The notes beneath the pieces are model-generated. The model saw nothing but the letters and a program-made list of their open reading frames with translations, ran no database searches and had not been told where the DNA came from. Of a stretch of 57,744 nucleotides of DNA, positions 1-43,086 are shown one piece after another. Within the stretch, counting starts at the first letter, position 1, and every line of letters starts with the position of its first letter. The position numbers were made by a program, and so were the translations under genes. Source of the stretch: a virus (Duplodnaviria; Caudoviricetes); the IMG/VR virus record IMGVR_UViG_3300037245_001071, positions 1-57,744 of that record. One strand, written 5' to 3'.

Positions 1-16
1 ATCTGCCTTGGTAGAG
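1..16. repeat. Left terminal direct repeat ATCTGCCTTGGTAGAG (candidate cos cohesive end)
   Basis: Identical to 57729-57744. Contains an imperfect dyad TCTGCC-TT-GGTAGA centred on the 16-mer and lies just upstream of terS/terL. Confidence 0.85.
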
Positions 17-52
17 AGTTTTAAAAAAAAAGTGTAATTTTTGCAGCCACTT

Positions 53-143
53 TTGCAACGGTTCTAATAGTCAACAATAATAACTTGCAACGGCTGCAAC
101 GCAAATAAACATTATATTGCAACGCTTTTTTAATATCGCAACG
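53..143 (+). repeat. GCAACG repeat cluster (candidate terminase-binding, cosB-like sites)
   Basis: TTGCAACG at 53, 85 and 117 (32-bp period), plus GCAACG at 96 and 138. Confidence 0.65.
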
Positions 144-150
144 AAATTAT

Positions 151-158
151 TAACTTTG
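151..158 (+). promoter_or_regulatory. Bacteroidota-type -7 promoter element TAACTTTG
   Basis: Matches TAnnTTTG, 18 nt upstream of the first ORF. Confidence 0.55.
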
Positions 159-176
159 AATAAACAAACTTAGATT

Positions 177-365
177 ATGATTGATATAGGAGTTGGAGCC
201 GAAATAGAATTAAAAGATGGAATGCAGTACGAAATAATAGTAGCATATCCAGGTGGTTATTATGATTTAAAAGCCATGAAACCACAATTTGAATGGATGC
301 CTAATTTCTTTCCCGTTTATTATTCTATTCGATTAAATGAGTTTAAAATAATCAACCAGAAGTAA
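177..365 (+). CDS. hypothetical protein
   Basis: 62-aa ORF with A-rich leader, packed against the next gene. Confidence 0.6.
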   Translation: MIDIGVGAEIELKDGMQYEIIVAYPGGYYDLKAMKPQFEWMPNFFPVYYSIRLNEFKIINQK

Positions 366-372
366 ACAACCA

Positions 373-1035
373 ATGGCAAAAATAAAAGTAATATCACGAA
401 AAGAACTTATAGCGTTTACTAAAATAAACCCTACTACATTGCGCTCTCATATATATAGAGGCATTATAAAAGAAACTAAAGAAAAGGGTTTTATTAATGT
501 ATATAATGCTACTAATCAGGATTGGATAGTTGACCACTGCAGCAAAAAAGGAATTGATATTAGACCTATATTTAATCAGAACGGGGTAAGTGTTCCAAGA
601 AAAGAACAATCCGAACAGGCTAAAAAGGTATCTGAAACTTTAAAGAAAGAACAAGAAATACAATTACCAATAGTTTCAACTGAACACACCAGGTTAAGAG
701 ATTCAAAGCTAAGAGAAGAAATACAATCAAAGGAAATCGAAACACAACTTAAAAAACTCGAACTAGAAAAGAAAAAAGCAAAAGTATTGCCTACTGATTT
801 TGTTGTTGAGGTTTTAAGTAGTTACATAAAAACTAACATTGCCGGAATAAAAACCGATGGACATAAAACAATTGATTCAATAGTTGATGAATTAGGAGGT
901 GACCATTCGACTAAATTGAAGTTTAAAAAGCAATTTGATATTATGGTTAGTGATACTTTCAAAAATAACCATGAATCAATAACTAAAGAGGCTAAGAAAA
1001 AGGCTAAAAAGTATGCTGCTGATAGAAATTGGTAG
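373..1035 (+). CDS. terS: terminase small subunit (Nu1-like, putative)
   Basis: N-terminal wHTH-like segment, coiled coil (KLREEIQSKEIETQLKKLELEKKKAKVLP), position between the genome end and GpA-type terL. Confidence 0.7.
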   Translation: MAKIKVISRKELIAFTKINPTTLRSHIYRGIIKETKEKGFINVYNATNQDWIVDHCSKKGIDIRPIFNQNGVSVPRKEQSEQAKKVSETLKKEQEIQLPIVSTEHTRLRDSKLREEIQSKEIETQLKKLELEKKKAKVLPTDFVVEVLSSYIKTNIAGIKTDGHKTIDSIVDELGGDHSTKLKFKKQFDIMVSDTFKNNHESITKEAKKKAKKYAADRNW

Positions 1036-1051
1036 CGCAGCGTATGCCATT

Positions 1052-1178
1052 CAACGGCTCGTGTATGCTGCGTAGCCTGACGAAACGAGATATAAACCTT
1101 AAATAATATACAAATGATAAGCGAAATACAGAATGATAAAAGTAAAATGGCTATGCAGTATGACACATTGTTATGCGC
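1052..1178 (+). other. attC-like recombination hairpin 1
   Basis: CAAC-ggctc-GTGTATGCTGCGTAGCC (1052-1077) pairs imperfectly with GGCTATGCAGTATGACAC-att-GTTATGC (1149-1176). Confidence 0.7.
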
Positions 1179-1419
1179 TGCTATTTACAAAACACTTAAA
1201 GACAATTGGAGCGATTCAAGAATGTCTCAATTTGATGGCTTCTGGTATGGATACGATGCATTAAGCGACTGCCTGTATGAAGTAGGATACCCACAAGTAA
1301 CAGAGAAAGAAATGAAACACGCAATGCAGTATTTAGGAAAGAAAGGAGCGTGTGAGCTTAAACCGACTTATGATGAAGAGGGAAAGATAAATGGGCGTGG
1401 CTGGTTTAGTTGCGCATAA
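1114..1419 (+). CDS. cassette ORF 1, hypothetical (possible small winged-helix-like protein)
   Basis: 101 aa. The start lies inside hairpin 1 and the stop codon TAA lies within GCGCATAAC. Confidence 0.75.
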   Translation: MISEIQNDKSKMAMQYDTLLCAAIYKTLKDNWSDSRMSQFDGFWYGYDALSDCLYEVGYPQVTEKEMKHAMQYLGKKGACELKPTYDEEGKINGRGWFSCA

Positions 1420-1529
1420 CGCGTTCCAGCGTAAGCTGAGTCGCTACGGTTGGTGGAGCGTAGCGGAGGCAAGGAGTAGTGTACTCGGCTTCACATGCTG
1501 CGATTCAGTTTACGCTGTGTTAGCCAGCG
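1412..1529 (+). other. attC-like recombination hairpin 2
   Basis: GCGCATAAC, then CAGCGTAAGCTGAGTCGC (1427-1444) pairing with GCGATTCAGTTTACGCTG (1500-1517, 16/18), then GTTAGCC. Inner hairpin CGCTACG/CGTAGCG. Confidence 0.7.
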
Positions 1530-1578
1530 TGACAGAGAGGACAAAGTAAATATTAATAACACGTAAAAATAGAAAATT

Positions 1579-1755
1579 ATGGACAAAATGATTTTATTGT
1601 TAACGGACGTTGAGAATGGAACGGGTTGTAAGCCAACCATTCAGGATTTAGAACATTGGGAGCGTGAGGGCTATGTTTATAGAGCTTTCGAAACAAACGG
1701 ATGGATCACCTTAAGTAAGGTGGATGTCAAATTAGATGTACATTGTGGGTATTAA
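1579..1755 (+). CDS. cassette ORF 2, hypothetical 58 aa (MDKMILLLTDVENGTG...DVHCGY)
   Basis: Read by hand, below the ORF-track cutoff. A-rich leader aaaattATG. Confidence 0.6.
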   Translation: MDKMILLLTDVENGTGCKPTIQDLEHWEREGYVYRAFETNGWITLSKVDVKLDVHCGY

Positions 1756-1778
1756 TTTTCGCATGTGAGCTGGAACGC

Positions 1779-1854
1779 GTTAGCCATTCATAGTCACTAA
1801 AAACATGAGGAATCGAATGTTTTGTGACGTGCCTCGATGGCATGAATGGCTAAC
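1779..1854. repeat. ORF-less unit with perfect 13-bp terminal inverted repeat
   Basis: GTTAGCCATTCAT (1779-1791) / ATGAATGGCTAAC (1842-1854), enclosing a GTCAC..AAACAT / ATGTTT..GTGAC hairpin. Confidence 0.75.
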
Positions 1855-1912
1855 TCTTTCTTATATTTTCTTTTAATAACCAATTAAGTAGTAAACAATT
1901 AAACATTACAAA

Positions 1913-2719
1913 ATGTGCAAGATTGAATTATTTGAACAGGAATTAAGACTTTCAAAATCAGAGCAAACAATTACTGCTTATAAAAAACAATTCGAATTGT
2001 TTTTAGAATATTTTGAAGGTAAAGACTTGAGGTATTTATCATTAAATGCTATAAAAGAATACATTCTATTCCTGCATAATATCTACGGCTATTCTAGTAT
2101 TATACACGCCATATCTGCTGTTAAGTTTTATTATGCTAATTTGAATGGTAGAAAAAGACATTTAGACATTACACATCCAAAGAAACCTAAAACAATTCCT
2201 ACAGTATTAAGCTATGATGAAGTAATGAAAATGATTAATTTAACCATGAATTTAAAACATAGGGCAATAATTGAAACTATATTTTTTCATGGATTAAGAA
2301 GGTCTGAATTATTAAGCTTAAAAATAGACCACATAGATTCGCCAAATATGATTTTAAAAGTAATTCAATCTAAAGGATGTAAAGATAGAAATATTCCCTT
2401 ATCTAAAGATTGCTTGAATACATTAAGGTTATATTTTAACGCCTATAGACCAAAAAAATACTTGTTTAATGGTATCGAAAAAGAAAATAAATACTCTCCA
2501 ACTTCATTAGCTAATATAATTACTGAAGCTGCAAAAAGAGCAAAAATAAATAAGAATGTAACACCACATACTTTACGACATAGTTTTGCTAGTTATTTAG
2601 TTTCAATAAATATAAATCTAAAGAAAATTCAAGAATGGATGGGACACGCATCAATTAAAACTACTGAGATTTATTGCCATATAGTTTATGAAGAAAATCC
2701 AATTAAAAAAAGAGCATAA
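1913..2719 (+). CDS. tyrosine recombinase, IntI/XerD-related
   Basis: GLRRSE, SKGCKDR, HTLRHSFA, MGH and TTEIYCH catalytic motifs; IPTVLS; N-terminal SAM-like domain; no arm-binding domain. Confidence 0.95.
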   Translation: MCKIELFEQELRLSKSEQTITAYKKQFELFLEYFEGKDLRYLSLNAIKEYILFLHNIYGYSSIIHAISAVKFYYANLNGRKRHLDITHPKKPKTIPTVLSYDEVMKMINLTMNLKHRAIIETIFFHGLRRSELLSLKIDHIDSPNMILKVIQSKGCKDRNIPLSKDCLNTLRLYFNAYRPKKYLFNGIEKENKYSPTSLANIITEAAKRAKINKNVTPHTLRHSFASYLVSININLKKIQEWMGHASIKTTEIYCHIVYEENPIKKRA

Positions 2720-4851
2720 TGTTAGAACAATCAATAAAAAAAGTATTAGAGTCTATTTCTTTTAATACGGATTATTTGAGCCCGTCTGAATGGATTGAAA
2801 AAAATAGATACATACAGGAACATGTAAGCGAGCGCATGTTTGGAAAATTCGATTGGTCAAATGTTCCTTATATGAAGCAAATAACCGACCATTTAAGCCA
2901 ATATGATCCGGTTACTCACATTGCATTAATGAAAGGTGTAAGGATTGGCGGTACTTTTGCATTGGTCCATAATGGAGTTCCTTATATCATGAGTGAACGC
3001 CCTACTAACATAATGCTTTTATCTGCAAATGATACATTAGCTACAAGTACATTAAAAGGTGTTGATGATGGTATTGATGGTTGTAATATCCGTCATTTAG
3101 TTGGTAAAACCTCAGGAGCAAGAAGTAAATCAACGGGAGATACTTTAGAGCAAAAAATATTTAACGGTGGTTATGAGTTGTTTAATTTTGGCGGTCAAAG
3201 CATTAAGAATATGCGACAAAAAACAGCCGGTTTTGTTGCGGCTGATGAGCTAGACGCTTTTAAGGGTATTGATAAAATAGGAGGTAGCTTTTTAAAAGCC
3301 ATGGAGGATAGGGCCAGAAGTTTCGGGGAGGCAAAGAAAATAGTATATATTAGTTCGCCTTTATTGTTGATAAGTAGTCTTATTTACAAACTATATTTAC
3401 AAGGAAATCAAAATGTTTATTATTTACCGTGCCCTCAATGTGGTGAATATATTGAATTAGTTTGGAATGAAAGAAACATAAATAATACTCGTTATGGGGT
3501 TGTATTTGATGTGAGAAATGGGGAGGTAATAGAAAAAAGCGTAAGGTACCGGTGTGGAAAGTGTGAAAATGAGTTCTTTGAAAAGAAATACAAGCGCGAT
3601 ATGCTTAATAATGGCTATTGGAAAGAATCTATGGAACGTGAGAATAAACGTTTTGTAAGCTATCGCATTTCTGCATTATACGCACCTCCTACAATGGATA
3701 ATTGGTATGATTTTGCAAGGGATTATCAGGAAGCATTTCCGAGAGGTGGTACAAAAGATGATGCAGCATATCAGACATTTGAAAACTCTATATTAGGTTG
3801 GCCATACAAGCCAATAGGATATGTTTTAAAAACAACCGAATTACAAAAGAATAGAAGAGACTATAAAATAGGTGATTGTCCTTTTGAACTATCTAAAAAA
3901 GATAATAACGGGGAGATTGTAATAATAACTTTAGCTGCAGATTGCAATGGTTACGATTCGGACCCCGACTATGGAGACGATGCACGTATAGATTATGAGA
4001 TTTTGGGGCATTCAGAAAAACAAGTTACATACTCAGCAGATGCCGGAAGTTGTGGAACCTTCATTCCAAAAATAGAACTACGAGCGTTAAAAAAAGAGGG
4101 TGTTGATATTGGAAAATTAGAAAGAGCCAGGAAAAAGTACAGCTATAAGTTAGATGTTGAAAATTCAGTATGGGACCTACTCGAAGAAAAAATAAAACAA
4201 ACGTTTGGTACTCATGAAAGAAGAATTGATGTAATTGCAATTGATGTGGGCGGTAAGTTTGGCGAGTATGGAATGGAGTTCTGCAAGAAAATGATAAACA
4301 TGGGATATAATGTCCTTCCAATAAAAGGAGCAAATAAAGAAATATTTACAGGTAAGGAAAAAAATGAAACTGCTAGGATGTATCAGATGTCAGAAGATGG
4401 AGAGAAATTTTTAGTTAATGTGAATGTAATTAAAGACAATCTAGCAAAATACATTTTACTTAAAGATTACATTGATAAGGATGGACAATTACACCAACCT
4501 GAGCATTATTTAAACTTTCCGGAATATGACCCAAAAGCTAAAAAGTACACTTATAGAAACTATTTTGCACATTACGAAAGCGAAAGCAGAAAAGAGAAAA
4601 AAGCCGAGGGTATGCAGACTAGATATTTTTGGGAAAAGAAAAGACCCGACTCTCAGAATCACTATTTAGATACAGCTGTTTATAATCAGTTTATTCCTAT
4701 TTATCATGCTGATTTGATATGTAAAGCCGCTAATGATGCTAAGTTGGCGAATGGGAAAAAGATGTATTCTGATAAAATAGAGATTACATGGGAAAACACC
4801 TGCAGGTTAATTAAAGAATGGTATGCTAATAATAATTTACAAATGAGTTAA
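2719..4851 (+). CDS. terL: terminase large subunit, lambda GpA family
   Basis: SPSEW N-terminus, Walker A-like MKGVRIGGT, Walker B AADELD, ISSP coupling motif, CPQCG...CGKC zinc ribbon, NHYLD nuclease motif. Confidence 0.93.
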   Translation: MLEQSIKKVLESISFNTDYLSPSEWIEKNRYIQEHVSERMFGKFDWSNVPYMKQITDHLSQYDPVTHIALMKGVRIGGTFALVHNGVPYIMSERPTNIMLLSANDTLATSTLKGVDDGIDGCNIRHLVGKTSGARSKSTGDTLEQKIFNGGYELFNFGGQSIKNMRQKTAGFVAADELDAFKGIDKIGGSFLKAMEDRARSFGEAKKIVYISSPLLLISSLIYKLYLQGNQNVYYLPCPQCGEYIELVWNERNINNTRYGVVFDVRNGEVIEKSVRYRCGKCENEFFEKKYKRDMLNNGYWKESMERENKRFVSYRISALYAPPTMDNWYDFARDYQEAFPRGGTKDDAAYQTFENSILGWPYKPIGYVLKTTELQKNRRDYKIGDCPFELSKKDNNGEIVIITLAADCNGYDSDPDYGDDARIDYEILGHSEKQVTYSADAGSCGTFIPKIELRALKKEGVDIGKLERARKKYSYKLDVENSVWDLLEEKIKQTFGTHERRIDVIAIDVGGKFGEYGMEFCKKMINMGYNVLPIKGANKEIFTGKEKNETARMYQMSEDGEKFLVNVNVIKDNLAKYILLKDYIDKDGQLHQPEHYLNFPEYDPKAKKYTYRNYFAHYESESRKEKKAEGMQTRYFWEKKRPDSQNHYLDTAVYNQFIPIYHADLICKAANDAKLANGKKMYSDKIEITWENTCRLIKEWYANNNLQMS

Positions 4852-4873
4852 TTGTTTATTCATGAAAATGTCG

Positions 4874-4966
4874 TAAATTAGCTGTGTTGTTAAAAGATAA
4901 ATTTTTTTCATAGGTTAATTTAGTTAGTATTAAGGCTATCGTTTGGGTTACGGTAGCCTTTTTTTT
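4874..4966 (+). ncRNA. candidate ~80-nt small RNA (promoter-like TAAATTAG to intrinsic terminator)
   Basis: TTG-N19-TAAATTAG, then an ORF-less tract, then a hairpin with T-run. Confidence 0.4.
4932..4966 (+). terminator. intrinsic terminator
   Basis: AAGGCTATCGT / ACGGTAGCCTT stem followed by a T-run. Confidence 0.85.
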
Positions 4967-5088
4967 GTATCTATATGGGAACTATTACACATAAGAATCA
5001 ACTCAAACAATGATTTATATCATTGCACTAAAAAAATATAGTTCTGATATTTGTAATGTCATAAGACAATAACTAAAAATAAAAATCC

Positions 5089-5274
5089 ATGCTACCTTAC
5101 GAAGAAAAAGTAAAAAAATTACGAAAATTGAGCATAGCAGACTTATATGCACTGAATAATTTGTTTTGCGTTGAAAGTAACAAAACAACATTCGGCTTAA
5201 GTAAAGGTGATGTGTCATTAGTAGACAATGTACTAGGAGAAAAAATAAACGCATTATTCAATCAAATAACATAA
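5089..5274 (+). CDS. hypothetical protein
   Basis: ORF in a tightly packed + strand run. Confidence 0.55.
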   Translation: MLPYEEKVKKLRKLSIADLYALNNLFCVESNKTTFGLSKGDVSLVDNVLGEKINALFNQIT

Positions 5275-5277
5275 ATT

Positions 5278-5883
5278 ATGAAACCTATTCACTACATCAA
5301 AAAGTATAAGCTCAATATTGGCACCAATTTTAGTCACAATGAGTTTATACAAGACTTAACCACCGATTTTATCACACTTTTAGAAGTTGGTAAAACAAAT
5401 TCAGGTCAATACGTTTTAAAAGGCTTTGAAAACACCGTAAGAGCCATTAGAATGAAATGGGAGGGTATAAATAACAAAACTAGTGGAGAATTGCCTGAAA
5501 AGCTTTGGAAATACTTCTATGCAACTGTAATAGTTAAAATGCGTGAAGAATTATTTCCTGATGAAATGGCACGAAGAAAAGAAGAGCGTGAGGAAAGAAA
5601 AAGAGACAGGGAAAACTACCAGAAATGGCAAGATCAAGAATTTGGATTTAGCGATTACTTTTTTAATTTCTTTCATTCAATATTCAAATCGCAAAATACA
5701 ATCCCATCGAGTAGTTTTGATTTATTAGGCATTGGTTCAGATTCTAGTGAAACTGATATAAAACAATCCTATAGAACTTTAGCCAAAAAGCACCATCCAG
5801 ATGCGGGTGGTAATCCTAAAAACTTTATGGAAATTACAGAGGCAAAAAATAAATGTTTAACTTATTTGAAAAATAAATTATGA
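5278..5883 (+). CDS. C-terminal J-domain (DnaJ-like) protein
   Basis: LGI...IKQSYRTLAKKHHPDAGG...FMEITEA, with intact HPD motif. Confidence 0.88.
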   Translation: MKPIHYIKKYKLNIGTNFSHNEFIQDLTTDFITLLEVGKTNSGQYVLKGFENTVRAIRMKWEGINNKTSGELPEKLWKYFYATVIVKMREELFPDEMARRKEEREERKRDRENYQKWQDQEFGFSDYFFNFFHSIFKSQNTIPSSSFDLLGIGSDSSETDIKQSYRTLAKKHHPDAGGNPKNFMEITEAKNKCLTYLKNKL

Positions 5884-6092
5884 AAAAGAAAACCGAAAAA
5901 ACAAAAGAACCGATAGAATTGCAGTATTTCACACCAAATGGTGTAAATGTAACCGACCGTATAAAAGATGGTAGAACTACTTTAATGTTAGACCTGGAAG
6001 CTGCTGAAAAGGTAAAGAGTGACAAAAAGAGTTATCTATATCCGGTAACTGATTCGGATGGTAAATTTATTGGTTATGGAATCCCTAAATAA
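5880..6092 (+). CDS. hypothetical protein
   Basis: Start given by the ORF track overlaps the previous stop codon. Confidence 0.55.
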   Translation: MKKKTEKTKEPIELQYFTPNGVNVTDRIKDGRTTLMLDLEAAEKVKSDKKSYLYPVTDSDGKFIGYGIPK

Positions 6093-7344: not shown

Positions 7345-7530
7345 ATATCCAAAAACTTACATAGGGAGTCACTAGGTATCCTTCCAAAGCTGATTATATT
7401 GAGCTTAAACCAAAGACGTACGATAGAGCTAGTCATAACAACCGAAAGTGCATGCAATGATTTAACGGTATTATCATGCGACCTTAATAATGATTTGAGG
7501 GTTGTTTGTGGTAGGAATAACCTTTGCTAG
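7234..7530 (+). CDS. possible leader ORF crossing the attenuator (icd/ash-like position)
   Basis: 98-aa ORF of atypical composition that reads through the terminator; may not be coding. Confidence 0.3.
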   Translation: MRQGILHTEIFGSVACFMPVLTSKKLAALLNCRVAFFISKNLHRESLGILPKLIILSLNQRRTIELVITTESACNDLTVLSCDLNNDLRVVCGRNNLC

Positions 7531-7633
7531 TTAAAAAGTCTATCTGAACTATTTGCTCTAATTTGAGCTAATTGTTAACCCTAAGATATTAAGGGAATGG
7601 ACACCGTTGTATGAACTAAAACAACATAAGATT

Positions 7634-7876
7634 ATGGAAAATGTAGATTTTAAACAAAAAGCAATCGATTTAATTAAATTATGTGAAGATGAAAATTATT
7701 TTAAATCAATTGATATGTTCGATAATTCTAAAATTACCGCACTAGAGTTTATTAAACTTATAAATGGAACTATGATTACTATTCCCCACACCTTAGAAAC
7801 AAAGAATTATTATATTGAATTAGAAAATGAATTATTAAAAATGACATTTGAAGATTATAATAACTTTAAGTTATAA
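7634..7876 (+). CDS. hypothetical protein
   Basis: Likely start at attATG 7634. Confidence 0.55.
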   Translation: MENVDFKQKAIDLIKLCEDENYFKSIDMFDNSKITALEFIKLINGTMITIPHTLETKNYYIELENELLKMTFEDYNNFKL

Positions 7877-7879
7877 ACA

Positions 7880-8233
7880 ATGGAAGATATTAAAGATTAC
7901 ACTTTAAAAGATTTAGGATTAGAAAAACAAACTAATCCAAATAAAAGATATTCTGTTACATTCCAATTTTATAGTCATAAAGAAGCTAGGCTCGAAAACT
8001 ATAAAATATTAACCCTTGCTTTCAAGACTAAAAAAGAAGCATACGAAGCGATGAATAAAGAATTAAATAATATTTATGACGAATTATTGATTAATCGCAA
8101 AAAACAAGACAAAACACTTGATTTTGTTTTCAAAAATATGTCATGGTTCATAAATGAAGAAATATTCGATAATTTATATCAAACTAATAATAGAATGATA
8201 TTAAATTCAATGCCATATATTTATAAAAACTAA
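7880..8233 (+). CDS. hypothetical protein
   Basis: 117-aa packed ORF. Confidence 0.6.
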   Translation: MEDIKDYTLKDLGLEKQTNPNKRYSVTFQFYSHKEARLENYKILTLAFKTKKEAYEAMNKELNNIYDELLINRKKQDKTLDFVFKNMSWFINEEIFDNLYQTNNRMILNSMPYIYKN

Positions 8234-8319
8234 ATAAACCCATTTGAAACCCCAATAATTGCAGAAATGGAGCAAAAACAGGACTTAAAAAGCATTAATA
8301 ATCATTTTAAATAGAAATT

Positions 8320-8673
8320 ATGAAAAGCGTTAAAGAAACAACAAAAAAGTACAACGAATTGATTAAAGATGTAGAAACAAATGATTTTTACAAAACAGAT
8401 TTAACAAATAAGGTTAATTGCTATGTGTGTAAATGTGGTCATGTGACTAAAACAATCGATATCCATTCAGGTGTAACTCCTTTTATGTTTACATGTGAAA
8501 AGTGCGATGGAGATGCTCAAAGTACATTCTATAATGACATTAAACCATATCAGAAACCAACTTTTGAATGGCATAGACCAATATTAAAAGAAGTGCTTAA
8601 AATGCGCAAAGATGAATTTATATTAGACCATGTTTTAAGAGGTGGCTTAATTGATCGTAAAATTAAAACCTAA
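8320..8673 (+). CDS. zinc-ribbon hypothetical protein
   Basis: YVCKCGH...GVTPFMFTCEKC. Confidence 0.65.
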   Translation: MKSVKETTKKYNELIKDVETNDFYKTDLTNKVNCYVCKCGHVTKTIDIHSGVTPFMFTCEKCDGDAQSTFYNDIKPYQKPTFEWHRPILKEVLKMRKDEFILDHVLRGGLIDRKIKT

Positions 8674-8677
8674 CCAA

Positions 8678-8911
8678 ATGAGACACAAAAGCGAAATAAT
8701 GAAATTACCTATATCTGAATTAACAGATGAAGAAATTGCAAAAGCTGCAATGTATAGATTAAACACTAAATCATTAATGTTTATCTATGAAGATTTAGAA
8801 TCGGAAAAAATCATTTTCATTACTCGCTGGAAAAAAGACGGTCGAAAAGTCTGCAGTAAAATAAAAAAAGCAATTCAGGATAACTTTTGTAAAATTGAAC
8901 CGATTAAATAA
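8678..8911 (+). CDS. hypothetical protein
   Basis: Likely start MRHKSE just after the previous stop. Confidence 0.5.
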   Translation: MRHKSEIMKLPISELTDEEIAKAAMYRLNTKSLMFIYEDLESEKIIFITRWKKDGRKVCSKIKKAIQDNFCKIEPIK

Positions 8912-8929
8912 TTAACTAAAAAGTAGATC

Positions 8930-9130
8930 ATGAAACTAACCGCCTACACATTCGAAACATTCTGGTATTTTTACCATGAAAAGAACCCACAATACAAGCG
9001 AAATACTACACAGGCTAAAACCCTATTTGAAAGTATTAATTGCACAGGGACAAAAAAGGAAATTATACAAGGAATAGAAAAGAGTGAATTGAGCGGGTTG
9101 GATTATATTAAAAAACAATTAACTAAATAG
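8930..9130 (+). CDS. hypothetical protein
   Basis: Packed ORF. Confidence 0.55.
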   Translation: MKLTAYTFETFWYFYHEKNPQYKRNTTQAKTLFESINCTGTKKEIIQGIEKSELSGLDYIKKQLTK

Positions 9131-9132
9131 TC

Positions 9133-9351
9133 ATGAAAGTACAAAATTTAGAGATTAAGTATTTGAATTTTAAAAGTGAATACAACAAAGACCCAAAAGG
9201 AATATTAATGAGTCCAAATAAATACGAAGAGTTGAGAAGAGAGGCGTATGTTGGTGGTTTAGATTTTGATAATAGTGGTTTAATTGAATTTAGAGGTGTT
9301 AAAATATATCGATCTTTCGATATTAATACAGATGAAATTGAAATATTTTAA
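9133..9351 (+). CDS. hypothetical protein
   Basis: Packed ORF. Confidence 0.55.
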   Translation: MKVQNLEIKYLNFKSEYNKDPKGILMSPNKYEELRREAYVGGLDFDNSGLIEFRGVKIYRSFDINTDEIEIF

Positions 9352-9369
9352 ATAATAAACTAAATAACT

Positions 9370-9543
9370 ATGAAATTCAAAAACATAAAAACAAAAGTTA
9401 TTTATACACATAAAGGACATTGTATAAATGCCACAAATGCAAATGATGGTCAATTAATGATACTATATGAAGCTTCTAACGGTGATTTATTTGCCAGAGA
9501 AGCATCAGAGTTTAATTCAAAGTTTGAACCTGTAAATAAGTAG
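9370..9543 (+). CDS. DUF1653-like small protein (57 aa)
   Basis: Read by hand: ...INATNANDGQLMILY...LFAREASEFNSKF. Confidence 0.6.
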   Translation: MKFKNIKTKVIYTHKGHCINATNANDGQLMILYEASNGDLFAREASEFNSKFEPVNK

Positions 9544-9580
9544 TTTATTGACAATTTACTGACAAAATACTAACAATTAG

Positions 9581-9763
9581 ATGCCATACCCTAAACTATA
9601 CCAATATATTACTTTCATGAAGTCAAACGAGCATGATAAGCAGTTTGGTATATTATTTACTGGTAAAGTGTTAAAAATAGATGATAAAGAGTGTTATTAT
9701 GTTGTTCGGGCTGATTATGGTCTGGACATAATTAAATTTAGTGAATTGATAAGAGTATTATAA
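9581..9763 (+). CDS. hypothetical protein
   Basis: 60-aa ORF. Confidence 0.5.
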   Translation: MPYPKLYQYITFMKSNEHDKQFGILFTGKVLKIDDKECYYVVRADYGLDIIKFSELIRVL

Positions 9764-9790
9764 AATAAAGTTTTAACTAAAAATAGAAAT

Positions 9791-9994
9791 ATGAAAGCAG
9801 AAGAAGCAAGAAAAAAAACCGACAAAGCTAAATTAGATGCTAATAATTTAATTAAAGACATTTATAAGGCATGTGAATTAGGTAAAGATTCGCTAACAAC
9901 TGGTAAATTATCAGAGTTTGAAAGCAAAAGACTAAACGAATTAGGCTACAAAGTTGAGCCTATAGCGGGAGGTGGTAATATAATTAAATGGTAA
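9791..9994 (+). CDS. hypothetical protein
   Basis: 67 aa, ends LGYKVE...IKW. Confidence 0.6.
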   Translation: MKAEEARKKTDKAKLDANNLIKDIYKACELGKDSLTTGKLSEFESKRLNELGYKVEPIAGGGNIIKW

Positions 9995-10019
9995 AATAAC
10001 ACAAGTGAAAAACAAATTT

Positions 10020-10049
10020 AAACCTCATTTTTAACTAAGTGAGGTTTTT
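10020..10049 (+). terminator. intrinsic terminator
   Basis: AAACCTCATT / AGTGAGGTTT stem followed by Ts. Confidence 0.7.
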
Positions 10050-41267: not shown

Positions 41268-42116
41268 ATGACTGCATTACCACAATTAGGAATTGATCCT
41301 GGAATAAGCAACGGTTGTTTTTCAATAAGAAATAACGGAAAGCTTATAAATATTCGAATGAAAGAAGAGTTTAGGGATATAATGGAAATTCTAAAACCTT
41401 TTGGAGGTTCGCCAACCGATACAGATATAAGATGTTTAATTGAAAGAATTTACATTAACCCTTTTTCATCGCCAAAAGTAAACGCCAACATGCAAAGACT
41501 AATGACTAATTTTGAAAGGTTAAAAGATGCTCTTTATGCATGTAATATTCCTTATCAAGTTGTAGAGGCTAAAGCTTGGCAAAAGTTTCATAATTTAGTA
41601 CAAAAGAAAGAAAAGGGAATCGATTATGATGCATTAGACTCCTTAAAAAAAGACCTTCGCCACCTAACCACGCATTTAAAAATAGAAAACAATGTAAAAA
41701 ATGATGAAGTTATAGCCGGTGATGTAAAGCATATTTTAGAAACATCTGGAAAACACGAAGCAAGAAAAATGCTATGTGATGGTTATTTGTTCTTTACAAA
41801 ATCACAATTAAAGAGCGCAATTGAAGAAACTGAAAAGGAAATAACCAAATTCAAGAGCAAAGAAAAACAGATCCGCAAAGGCAGATATAAAGACTATGCA
41901 AATAAGGTTTATATTAAATCTCTGATAGGTGACGATGAAAAGCGAATTGAAAGGATAACTAATGAGCTTAAGATTGACGTAAAAGGCTTCTTTTATAATA
42001 ATGTAGCTATTACACCTGCAGAGTTGAGAAAGTTGTTTAAACTGTATAAATTGAAGCCATTGACTTTGAATGAATGTGATGCTGTTTTGATTTTGTTGTA
42101 TCAATTGAATAGTTAG
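41268..42116 (+). CDS. RuvC-like Holliday junction resolvase with large insertions
   Basis: GIDPG, IER, WQK, CDAVLI. Confidence 0.65.
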   Translation: MTALPQLGIDPGISNGCFSIRNNGKLINIRMKEEFRDIMEILKPFGGSPTDTDIRCLIERIYINPFSSPKVNANMQRLMTNFERLKDALYACNIPYQVVEAKAWQKFHNLVQKKEKGIDYDALDSLKKDLRHLTTHLKIENNVKNDEVIAGDVKHILETSGKHEARKMLCDGYLFFTKSQLKSAIEETEKEITKFKSKEKQIRKGRYKDYANKVYIKSLIGDDEKRIERITNELKIDVKGFFYNNVAITPAELRKLFKLYKLKPLTLNECDAVLILLYQLNS

Positions 42117-42117
42117 G

Positions 42118-43086
42118 ATGAAAGAAATTAATGTAGTTAGTTTATTTAATGGAATGGGAACTTTACGACAGGCATTTTGTGATATTAATATTAAGATTGA
42201 TAAATACTATTCGAGCGAGATAAAACCCTATGCTATCGAATTGCAGCAACATCATTTTTCAGACGTGATACAAGTTGGAAATATTAAGAACTGGAAAGAA
42301 TGGGATATTGATTGGAAAACTATTGATTTTATAGGTAGCGGTTCGCCTTGTCAGGATTTGAGTGGAGCTGGTAAACGTGCAGGAATTAATGGAGATAAAA
42401 GTAGTTTATTTTTTGTGTTTATTGAAATATTGGAATACGTTAAAAAATTAAACCCGAATGTTATTTTCTTACAAGAGAATGTTGGAAGTGCTAGTAAGTT
42501 AGATATTGGCATTATGAGTAGAAAACTAGGCGTTTACCCAGTTAGAATAAATAGTAGTTTGGTGACAGCACAACAACGTGATAGATATTACTGGACCAAT
42601 ATAAAAACAAAGGAAACAATGTTTGATATTATTACCGACATACCACAACCAAAAGACAAAGGAATTTTACTTTCAGATGTTATTGAAAATGGTTTTGTTG
42701 ATAGAGATAAGGCTCGTGCTATTTTACAAAGCGAAGGTAGGCTAAATACAGACATGAAAAAACTATTAAGAAGATACAAAACTGTTGGATTTGGGAATGT
42801 TGTTTATTGCGTAGCGCAAAGAGGGAGGGGAATTGGTAAGGGTAATTATGTACAACAATATGAAGTTAATTTAAAGCAAAAATCAAATACACTTACGTTA
42901 GTAGATAAAGATAACTTTATGTTTAATGGTGAACAGATAAGACCTTTTTCTAAAATAGAATTATGTAGGTTGCAAGGATTTCCAGATAACTATTGCGATA
43001 TACTTACAAGAAATAAAGCAGCAAGTCTATTAGGTGACGGATGGACTTTGCCAATAATAGAGCACATTTTAAGTTTTTACAAATGA
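42118..43086 (+). CDS. DNA (cytosine-5)-methyltransferase
   Basis: SLFNG, GSPCQD, ENV, Q.R.RYYW, RLQGFP, LGDGW. Confidence 0.93.
   Translation: MKEINVVSLFNGMGTLRQAFCDINIKIDKYYSSEIKPYAIELQQHHFSDVIQVGNIKNWKEWDIDWKTIDFIGSGSPCQDLSGAGKRAGINGDKSSLFFVFIEILEYVKKLNPNVIFLQENVGSASKLDIGIMSRKLGVYPVRINSSLVTAQQRDRYYWTNIKTKETMFDIITDIPQPKDKGILLSDVIENGFVDRDKARAILQSEGRLNTDMKKLLRRYKTVGFGNVVYCVAQRGRGIGKGNYVQQYEVNLKQKSNTLTLVDKDNFMFNGEQIRPFSKIELCRLQGFPDNYCDILTRNKAASLLGDGWTLPIIEHILSFYK

Follow-up and report, generated by a model that had tools for sequence, protein, structure and literature searches.

The segment from position 1036 to 2719 of the window, the name used here for the whole 57,744-bp stretch of viral DNA that was analysed, quite probably forms a small platform for gene capture, integron-like in kind, in the genome of a marine phage of Flavobacteriia. 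An array of two cassettes, or perhaps of three units, and an insertion half-site would precede a dedicated short recombinase of the Xer/XerA-like type, the whole lying between the genes of the small and large terminase subunits (terS and terL). The array is documented by its architecture, by the statistics of its elements, by the complementarity of its cassette ends, by its association with a recombinase gene and by breakpoints that fall precisely after AAC in isolates of Polaribacter phage Freya. The recombinase of the window, presumed from its sequence to be the cassette recombinase, would be the acting enzyme; its substrate would be single-stranded, and the array of the window may still be active.

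The elements of these arrays share one plan. An R'' box, (T/C)A(T/C)AAC, is followed by a mostly G-initial spacer of 4-6 nucleotides (nt), a 5' arm (L'') that often reads G(Y)G.TATG, a variable loop, a 3' arm (L'), a spacer of 1-3 nt (GT, AT or ATT) and an R' box, GTT(A/G)NNN. They were sought with a descriptor of our own that demands AAC, a spacer of 2-7 nt, a helix scoring at least 14 (a G.T pair counting 0.5 and one irregularity being allowed), a spacer of 1-3 nt and GTT. Over both strands of the 57,744 bp of the window it matched twice, at 1053-1172 and 1418-1521, both times within the array; these are the two long AAC...GTT hairpins that a preliminary description of this DNA had pointed out. 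Twenty first-order Markov shuffles of the window gave 0.4 matches on average and two at most. At locus L020, which has a recombinase between terS and terL, all nine matches fall on the + strand and within the terS-terL array (0.25 in shuffles), and none was found in L022 and L023, which have no recombinase at terL. When the 64 complementary trinucleotide closings were compared, AAC/GTT gave 14 matches and any other five at most, the fives (ACG and TAA) overlapping the same motif. Imperfect palindromes of the order R''-L''...L'-R', closed by AAC and GTT as in attC sites, are thus found by scans controlled with shuffled sequence and with alternative trinucleotides. A scan of minimum free energy in which AAC/GTT pairing was forced did not discriminate, long segments always folding, and was dropped in favour of the helix descriptor. 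Some of the helices are long-range, spanning a conserved leader (GAAACGAGATATWAAC), a start codon and up to about 64 codons; in the homologous ORF107 of L020 and ORF102 of L018 (ORF, open reading frame) the long-range pairing is preserved despite differing sequences. The G.T wobbles are located on the + strand.

The array of the window was parsed as follows.

1046-1055, +: R''0, GCCATTCAAC, left array boundary; it supplies the AAC of the descriptor match 1053-1172
1056-1420, +: cassette A, 365 nt, helix score 15.5
Cassette A, layout: spacer GGCTC at 1056-1060, 5' arm 1061-1077, 3' arm 1149-1166, spacer ATT
Cassette A, loop, +: leader GAAACGAGATATAAAC and the ATG at 1114
Cassette A, ends: R' GTTATGCGCT at 1170-1179, body of ORF101, R'' TGCGCATAAC at 1411-1420
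1421-1854, +: cassette B, 434 nt, helix score 17.0, the strongest fold of the phage
Cassette B, layout: spacer GCGTTC, 5' arm 1427-1444, 3' arm 1500-1517, spacer T
Cassette B, ends: R' GTTAGCCAGC at 1519-1528, ORF58, terminal R'' AATGGCTAAC at 1845-1854
Cassette B, alternative parse: B1 at 1421-1776 (GTTCCAGC...GCTGGAAC) and an ORF-less 78-nt unit at 1777-1854, with AAC/GC/GTT junctions
1855-1912, +: putative recombinase-proximal half-site and spacer, attI-like, no hairpin
1913-2719, +: tyrosine recombinase, 268 residues, Pfam Phage_integrase (PF00589, 2.4e-31)
1036-1075, +: hairpin H1, RNA fold of -24.6 kcal/mol, z -2.95 on the + strand and +0.53 on the - strand
1779-1854, +: hairpin H3, perfect 13-bp stem GTTAGCCATTCAT/ATGAATGGCTAAC, -39.0 kcal/mol, z -4.97, ending in the terminal R''

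The junction between the phage backbone and cassette A may be set after 1055 by likeness to the empty site of Freya, which ends in TTTACAAC. R' and R'' of cassette A match at 6/7 variable positions, with 9 contiguous nt, and those of cassette B at 5/7. The alternative parse of cassette B explains the perfect inverted repeat 1417-1430/1769-1782 (14 nt, 100% complementary). Three further inverted repeats were confirmed: 1170-1183/1407-1420 (14 nt, 86% complementary, the outer 9 nt, GTTATGCGC/GCGCATAAC, being perfect), 1773-1791/1842-1860 (19 nt, 89%, including the perfect 13 nt of the H3 stem) and 1427-1444/1500-1517 (18 nt, 89%). All the GTT...AAC repeats, units and hairpins of the preliminary description are hence present in the DNA, its units 1 and 2 lying partly within coding sequence (R' of unit 1 corresponds to codons 19-22 of ORF101). 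A 9-nt inverted repeat by itself is at about chance level within 1 kb, and the significance of these repeats therefore comes from the architecture and the comparative data. H1 is a local alternative pairing of the segment that also supplies the 5' arm of the long helix. H1 and H2 (1427-1517) fold far better on the + than on the - strand because of their G.U/G.T pairs, and H3 folds equally on both. The lowest fold energy of the whole phage is that of the 120-nt segment at 1401, and its largest island of high G+C content is 1371-1540. The array has 40% G+C versus 32% in the remaining phage, which suggests foreign cargo. A single 8-mer at 289, TTGAATGG, is a possible partner of the first R''.

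At the cassette ends, each R' (GTT and the next 7 nt) was compared with the next downstream R'' (7 nt and AAC) in the units of the window and of loci L017, L018, L020 and L035. All 17 units are complementary at their own ends, with a mean of 6.24/7 variable positions, versus 2.6/7 for non-cognate pairs (n=374) and 2.1/7 for R'' and R' of the same hairpin; none of 200,000 permutations reached the observed cognate sum. The pairing extends over about 14 nt, and position 11, counted from the printed strings, is a G.T pair in 13 of the 17 units. The cassette boundaries with complementary ends that had been proposed for the window are thus shared by the related loci. A validation set of automatically detected elements (L036, L040, L044, L045, L049 and the minus strands of Polaribacter phage P12002L and of the bacterial locus L115) gave at least 5/7 matches in 13/24 consecutive pairs, versus a background of 6.7%.

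Gain and loss of cassettes can be followed in Polaribacter phage Freya_1 to Freya_10 (GenBank MT732463-72), which were found by protein search of phage records. The ORFs of the different arrays have almost nothing in common between phages by blastp and tblastn, so that crossovers had to be mapped on the Freya isolates and not on homologous cassettes. Their genomes measure 43,978-48,920 bp and the coordinate of the integrase gene shifts accordingly. Bartlau 2021 gives the size range of these phages and names the gene integrase; its main text makes no mention of a cassette, integron, insertion or indel. Seven isolates, 1, 2, 5, 6, 8, 9 and 10, were compared (L197/L198, L199-L207). Freya_1 and Freya_10 differ at one place, with flanks 100% and 99.8% identical, and the array directly upstream of the integrase measures 0 nt in Freya_1, 842 in Freya_2 (838 nt read to the end of the record, the last 4 inferred), 1744 in Freya_5, 2216 in Freya_6, 4040 in Freya_8, 4635 in Freya_9 and 4942 in Freya_10. 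The empty site reads ...TTGTTTACAAC/ACCCCTATAAC..., the slash marking the junction (that is, /ACCCC...), 47 nt before the ATG. The arrays of Freya_2, 5, 9 and 10 are nested prefixes of a single array, Freya_8 is without exactly positions 843-1744 of it, and Freya_6 has a different terminal cassette of 472 nt. Every junction falls immediately after YAAC. A cassette consequently consists of spacer, hairpin, R', cargo and R'', and most turnover takes place at the end nearest the recombinase. Insertion and deletion exactly at AAC sites in these isolates directly support the gene shuffling that the preliminary description had proposed; its placement of recombination at the GTT points has to be given up, the crossover mapping to the AAC side so that the hairpin travels with the GTT...cargo...AAC that follows it. 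A crossover between G and TT of R', the top-strand convention of integrons, was also considered and rejected on these junctions; this model would, moreover, place a hairpin downstream of the last AAC, ahead of the recombinase, and would part ORFs from their start codons.

Relatives of the terL gene at 55-71% identity (nine viral contigs and further metagenome contigs) show how variable the gap between terS and terL is.

No ORF, terS abutting terL: L003, L006, L008
One variable ORF: L004, L005, L007, L026
Two ORFs: L024
About 9 ORFs and a recombinase: L018
About 12 ORFs and a recombinase: L020

Judged from the translations, the cargo would comprise DNA methyltransferases, a ligase of the RtcB-like type, a MazG-like protein and a radical-SAM protein. 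Used alone as the query, the recombinase of the window had no match among viral or genome contigs; with an alignment of 31 close homologues, 80 viral loci were retrieved, and 79 of these (all except L035; 985,503 nt, both strands) were scanned with the descriptor. Arrays of at least two elements occur in only 6/79, namely L036, L040, L044, L045, L046 and L049 (L045 and L046 being apparently one sequence), and all six rank among the 15 best loci. Their 20 elements lie, without exception, upstream of the recombinase and on its strand. Arrays are present in L017, L018, L020 and L035 as well; a search with the alignment of the L020 and L018 recombinases returned only L020 and L018 again. In L035 the recombinase does not adjoin terL and stands in another genomic context, with the same elements upstream. 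In L017, L018, L020, L035, L036, L044, L045 and Freya, about 45-65 nt of sequence devoid of hairpins separate the last boundary (CTAAC/ or YAAC/) from the start of the downstream recombinase. The link between hairpin sites and a downstream, co-directional recombinase devoid of the IntI insertion, which had been described for the window, therefore recurs in the related loci.

L017 has one ORF in its terS-terL gap and a second platform at 7489-10031, between the portal and protease genes, made of small ORFs, a methyltransferase cassette and a 277-residue recombinase; a single element was detected there, and the methyltransferase cassette ends in GTTAGCCACA...TGTGGCTAAC. Its position implies that the platform itself moves between genomic sites. 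Of the bacterial loci, 80 were scanned (807,366 nt); L115 alone had an array whose cassette ends match, and hits elsewhere were sporadic. On the minus strand of L115 (7767-10028; a chromosomal scaffold of Flavobacteriaceae bacterium S0862) three elements, with cassette ends matching at 6/7 and 7/7, adjoin a recombinase of 376 residues that is 44% identical to that of the window. As in classical integrons, these elements run antisense to the ORFs, but the orientation of the recombinase differs.

The recombinase of the window belongs with the Xer-like enzymes. Its best NCBIfam family is XerA_Arch (179.6 bits, under the cutoff of 220), and it stays below the equivalog cutoffs of XerD (165.3 versus 329.6 bits) and XerC (151.5 versus 335). 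The integron-integrase models align in two stretches each, TIGR02249 with 132.1 bits (cutoff 265) and NF011946 with 78 (cutoff 435): residues 177-200 of the query face about 80 profile positions that the two models together leave unmatched, position 259 of the NF011946 profile aligning with residue 201. The 268-residue protein thus lacks the additional domain specific to IntI. The closest solved structure is XerA (5hxy, 1.8e-32), and IntI4 (2a3v) again aligns in two stretches. The catalytic R, K, H, R, H and Y (R129/R130, K154/K157, H219, R222, H245 and Y254) are invariant across the 31 homologues. Thirty homologues have 55-81% identity; identity to the window recombinase is 68% in L035, 32% in Freya and 25% in L018 and L020.

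From these data a mechanism can be proposed. On the + strand a cassette consists of a spacer, an imperfect L''/L' hairpin whose loop can hold a leader and a start codon, a second spacer, R' (GTTR and about 7-11 nt), the cargo, and R'' (about 7-11 nt and YAAC). Cassettes are joined head to tail exactly after AAC. The last one ends about 58 nt before the recombinase gene, where it abuts sequence that has no hairpin, and this is the point of gain and loss in the relatives. Strand exchange by the recombinase would take place at or within AAC and would involve two partners, the recombinase-proximal site and the R''-hairpin-R' site that circularization of a cassette restores; the + strand would probably take part in its hairpin form, by analogy with attC x attI recombination. 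The folded single strand and the choice of strand are hinted at, indirectly, by the G.T asymmetry, by which the + strand folds better.

Several observations weigh against this interpretation. Enzyme-site specificity is extrapolated across recombinases of 25-68% identity, and cassette B can be parsed in two competing ways. Close relatives of the phage that might reveal gain or loss at the window locus itself are not at hand, and the nested arrays and the empty site are those of Freya; the single public sequencing run containing the window (contigs only, probably the source sample) shows no joints, variants or excised forms across 1-6000, and it gives no polymorphism data and is uninformative on rare excision. 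Some helices enclose 260-290 nt including coding sequence, which is unlike the compact attC sites and also compatible with a role in RNA. In the validation set 11/24 pairs fail, among them 4/4 of L049, the other failures being mostly units of more than 1.5 kb in which intermediate elements were probably missed; and in Freya R' of the first block matches the next AAC boundary at only 2/7. Finally, P12002L has the same elements and no annotated recombinase, which indicates that sites can persist or be assembled without an enzyme encoded in cis.

Alternatively, short repeats in the intergenic sequences could let general or illegitimate recombination shuffle the cassettes with no dedicated site-specific enzyme, a process that has been proposed for the modular shuffling of T4-type phages. 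The arrays of P12002L would agree with this, as would the 842-nt block of Freya_2, which is flanked on both sides by the 11-nt TTGTTTACAAC, the recurrence of R boxes (GTTACCTGC twice in L020; GTTGTGTGTCTGGTGCG in L018, L020 and L040) and the RecT-like protein encoded by Freya. However, the other Freya junctions differ across AAC (TTGTTACCAAC/ACCCC versus TTGTTACCAAC/TTACATG or /GTTCACG; TTGTTGCTAAC/ACCCC), leaving a homology of about 3-4 nt, and the strict polarity, the hairpin architecture and the linkage to a recombinase are not expected from homologous exchange. We regard this explanation as improbable.

The hairpins could also act in the RNA of the late transcript, as terminators, as processing sites or in translational control by structures that sequester start codons, the recombinase being an ordinary lysogeny integrase that is nearby by chance. 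This would account for the G.U-type wobbles on the sense strand only, for the better folding of the + strand, for the helices around a leader and start codon (1061-1077/1149-1166 in the window, and the covarying pairs of L020 ORF107 and L018 ORF102) and for the competition of a local hairpin with a long helix, which resembles an attenuator; integrases of flavophages are read by Bartlau 2021 as markers of a temperate lifestyle. What it leaves unexplained is the gain and loss of DNA exactly at YAAC in Freya, the complementarity of the unit ends and the position of the arrays exclusively upstream of recombinases. No relevant Rfam family matched window 1-6000 at E<=10, or L013 and L018 at E<=1, and no prophage copy of the recombinase was found in one genome for each of 185,579 species (best identity 44%), which is weak evidence. 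As an account of the whole locus it seems quite improbable to us; an RNA role of the helices around start codons could coexist with recombination. That the units are instead miniature transposon-like elements (MITE-like) with GTT...AAC terminal inverted repeats, inserted singly beside an unrelated recombinase, is very improbable, for in spite of the terminal inverted repeats of 8-13 nt, the GC separators at 1421-1422 and 1777-1778 and the 76-nt unit 1779-1854 that resembles a MITE, other arrays separate their units by hairpin linkers of 40-290 nt and not by a fixed duplication, no transposase is present, and the units are confined to ordered, co-oriented arrays beside tyrosine recombinases.

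The gene-capture platform proposed here for the window is best compared with the integron. On the bottom strand of an integron a hairpin, GTTRRRY, antisense cargo and RYYYAA/C come first, attI is next and intI, in sense orientation, comes last, and the first bases of each cassette are complementary to its own inverse core. The phage system has the same cassette array adjoining a tyrosine recombinase gene, the same imperfect hairpins R''(..AAC)-spacer-L''...L'-spacer-R'(GTT..) with a variable loop, cassette starts that are likewise complementary to their inverse core, and gain and loss at the recombinase-proximal site (on the phage side, in Freya); its order on the + strand, array, insertion site and recombinase in sense, is that of the integron bottom strand. 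It differs in its carriage by phage genomes, in a recombinase that lacks the IntI-specific insertion and matches XerA/XerD best, in complementary ends that extend over about 14 nt (7 nt in integrons) and carry a G.T at position 11, in an internal loop that is asymmetric (4-6 nt on one side, 1-3 nt on the other), in loops that sometimes hold a start codon and up to about 64 codons, and in cargo ORFs that are co-directional with the recombinase and not divergent from it. Of the unlike orientation claimed earlier for this locus, the direction of the cargo thus holds, whereas the polarity of recombinase, insertion site and hairpin is classical.

As far as the available portion of Loot 2012 goes, attC sites have the layout R''-L''/L'-R', measure 57-141 bp and recombine as bottom strands. 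Qi et al. 2023 (PMC9892861), in the portion available to us, report that virulent phages, among them Polaribacter phage P12002L, carry attC clusters without integrase (CALINs), one of two tested P12002L sites being recombined into attI1 by IntI1; methyltransferases are among the cargo, as here, no phage-encoded integrase is given for the clusters in that portion, and they are regarded as components of bacterial integrons. With our descriptor the minus strand of P12002L (L032; 31118-40948) has 8 elements of score at least 14 around methyltransferase genes, with matching cassette ends; these may include the two sites of Qi et al. The cassette termini GTTGTRTGTCTGGTGCG...AGCACTTGCAYACAAC are common to P12002L, L018 and L020; the gp38 methyltransferase cassette of P12002L has its termini and 5' leader in common with cassettes of L018 and L020. 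Unlike the CALINs of P12002L, the arrays described here adjoin dedicated short recombinases. Full-text searches of the literature found no description of phage-borne arrays with a dedicated phage-encoded Xer-like recombinase.

The likeness to Xer/dif systems lies in the small two-domain tyrosine recombinase nearest to XerA/XerD and in R boxes such as TGCGCATAAC, which resemble a dif arm; a folded single strand has a precedent as Xer substrate in the folded single-stranded DNA site of CTX phage. In contrast to Xer/dif, a 28-bp dif-like site is not seen, although no search aimed at one was made, the phage sites are arrayed around cargo genes with no context of chromosome dimers, and the NCBIfam Xer equivalog cutoffs are missed. 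Shufflons and invertible segments (Rci, FimB/E) also join a tyrosine recombinase to short repeats, some of them within coding sequence, and the window has its perfect 14-nt inverted repeat flanking 1431-1768. However, the polymorphism of Freya is insertion and deletion of co-oriented units and not inversion, and the invertase model matches the recombinase weakly (1.3e-12, 47.8 bits versus a cutoff of 221). Segment 1431-1768 was rejected as an invertible switch, nothing beyond the flanking repeat supporting it.

The remaining genes of the locus are the following; every gene of the record is on the + strand.

373-1035, +: terS-like gene; phrog_5193 (1.5e-12) and phrog_57, terminase small subunit (8.9e-06)
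1114-1419, +: ORF101, cargo of cassette A; conserved small protein, function unassigned
1579-1755, +: ORF58, cargo of cassette B, orphan; no family in Pfam, PHROG or NCBIfam
2719-4851, +: terL, gpA-type large terminase; PF05876 (1.2e-39) and PF20454 (1e-25)

The terS-like gene is homologous to the gene that directly abuts terL in L003, L006 and L008. ORF101 has no family match in Pfam, PHROG or NCBIfam and three homologues with 71-74% identity, which argue for a genuine conserved gene; one of them begins at MAMQYD, the second Met cluster, and the start may be at 1147 instead of 1114. ORF58 found only itself in a search of 5.8 billion proteins. The TAA of the recombinase (2717-2719) overlaps the ATG of terL (2719-2721), as first described. 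The closest named phages by terL, at about 30-32% identity, infect Cellulophaga and Flavobacterium, and the label of Bacteroidota phage, based solely on the relatives of terL and of the recombinase, is to be read as a prediction. Window 1-5000 had no blastn match in phage records, and no tRNA or tmRNA gene and no attP-like match was found in the window. Position 1 of the window is also a contig end in the source run, and L003, L004 and L006 start about 160-370 nt upstream of terS; these shared starts may mark where the genome physically ends (cos) in this lineage with a gpA-type terminase. Elsewhere in the window, a 201-residue ORF at 5278-5883 has, as judged by eye, a J-domain-like C-terminal stretch (..KKHHPDAGGN..), and a cytosine-methyltransferase-like gene outside any array (42115-43071) is 32% identical to the Dcm-like cassette cargo of L020.

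Two leaders recur in the cassettes. The motif (G)AAACGAG(A)TAT(A/T)AAC stands about 20-30 nt upstream of start codons in unrelated cassettes (window 1082-1097, L009:4454-4469, L020:3093-3108, L035:7552-7567); GAAACGAGATAT is matched exactly at one place each in the window (1082) and L009, and is at chance level when 2 mismatches are allowed. The second, TTGATTAAATGA(A/G)C(C)GAACCTTTTTGTTTT...TTTTTAGGG, precedes several cassette ORFs (L018:866-900, 1940-1975, 2739-2748 and 3396-3407; L020:4795-4840), is absent from the window and may be a cassette-borne promoter. The motif TGATTAAATG was discarded, being specific to the L018 and L020 arrays and at chance level in the window. Several cargo ORFs run in frame through L'-spacer-R' (..R-V-S/V..; L018:4487-4795, L020:3125-3448, L035:7204-7506, L017:8351-8400), so that the loop of the hairpin encodes the N-terminal part and the sequence beyond R' a variable C-terminal part; protein modules might be exchanged by recombination without loss of frame.

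Integrons count as devices of bacteria, with IntI as their defining integrase, and to our knowledge the reports from phages have until now concerned fragments of bacterial integrons or orphan attC clusters. Here a complete platform, with array, insertion site and presumed recombinase, is borne by a phage and would use a different and simpler clade of recombinases. We lean, by a modest measure, towards a more general view, in which marine Bacteroidota phages and at least one Flavobacteriaceae chromosome would carry a separate and widespread class of integron-like platforms, whose short XerA-like recombinases without the IntI domain would cut at AAC on a folded sense-strand hairpin, the loop being able to supply a leader, a start codon and even an N-terminal peptide to the cargo, and through which methyltransferases, RNA-repair genes and small host-takeover or anti-defence genes would be traded during blooms. 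Freya is a ready experimental system (ten near-identical cultured isolates that differ only by such cassettes, one phage, one host strain), with which it can be asked how hairpin-site recombination arose from Xer-like enzymes. The fast gain of accessory genes by virulent or weakly temperate phages and the roles of the many orphan cassette genes become accessible as well. For flavobacterial phages, moreover, the presence of an integrase does not automatically mean that the phage is temperate.

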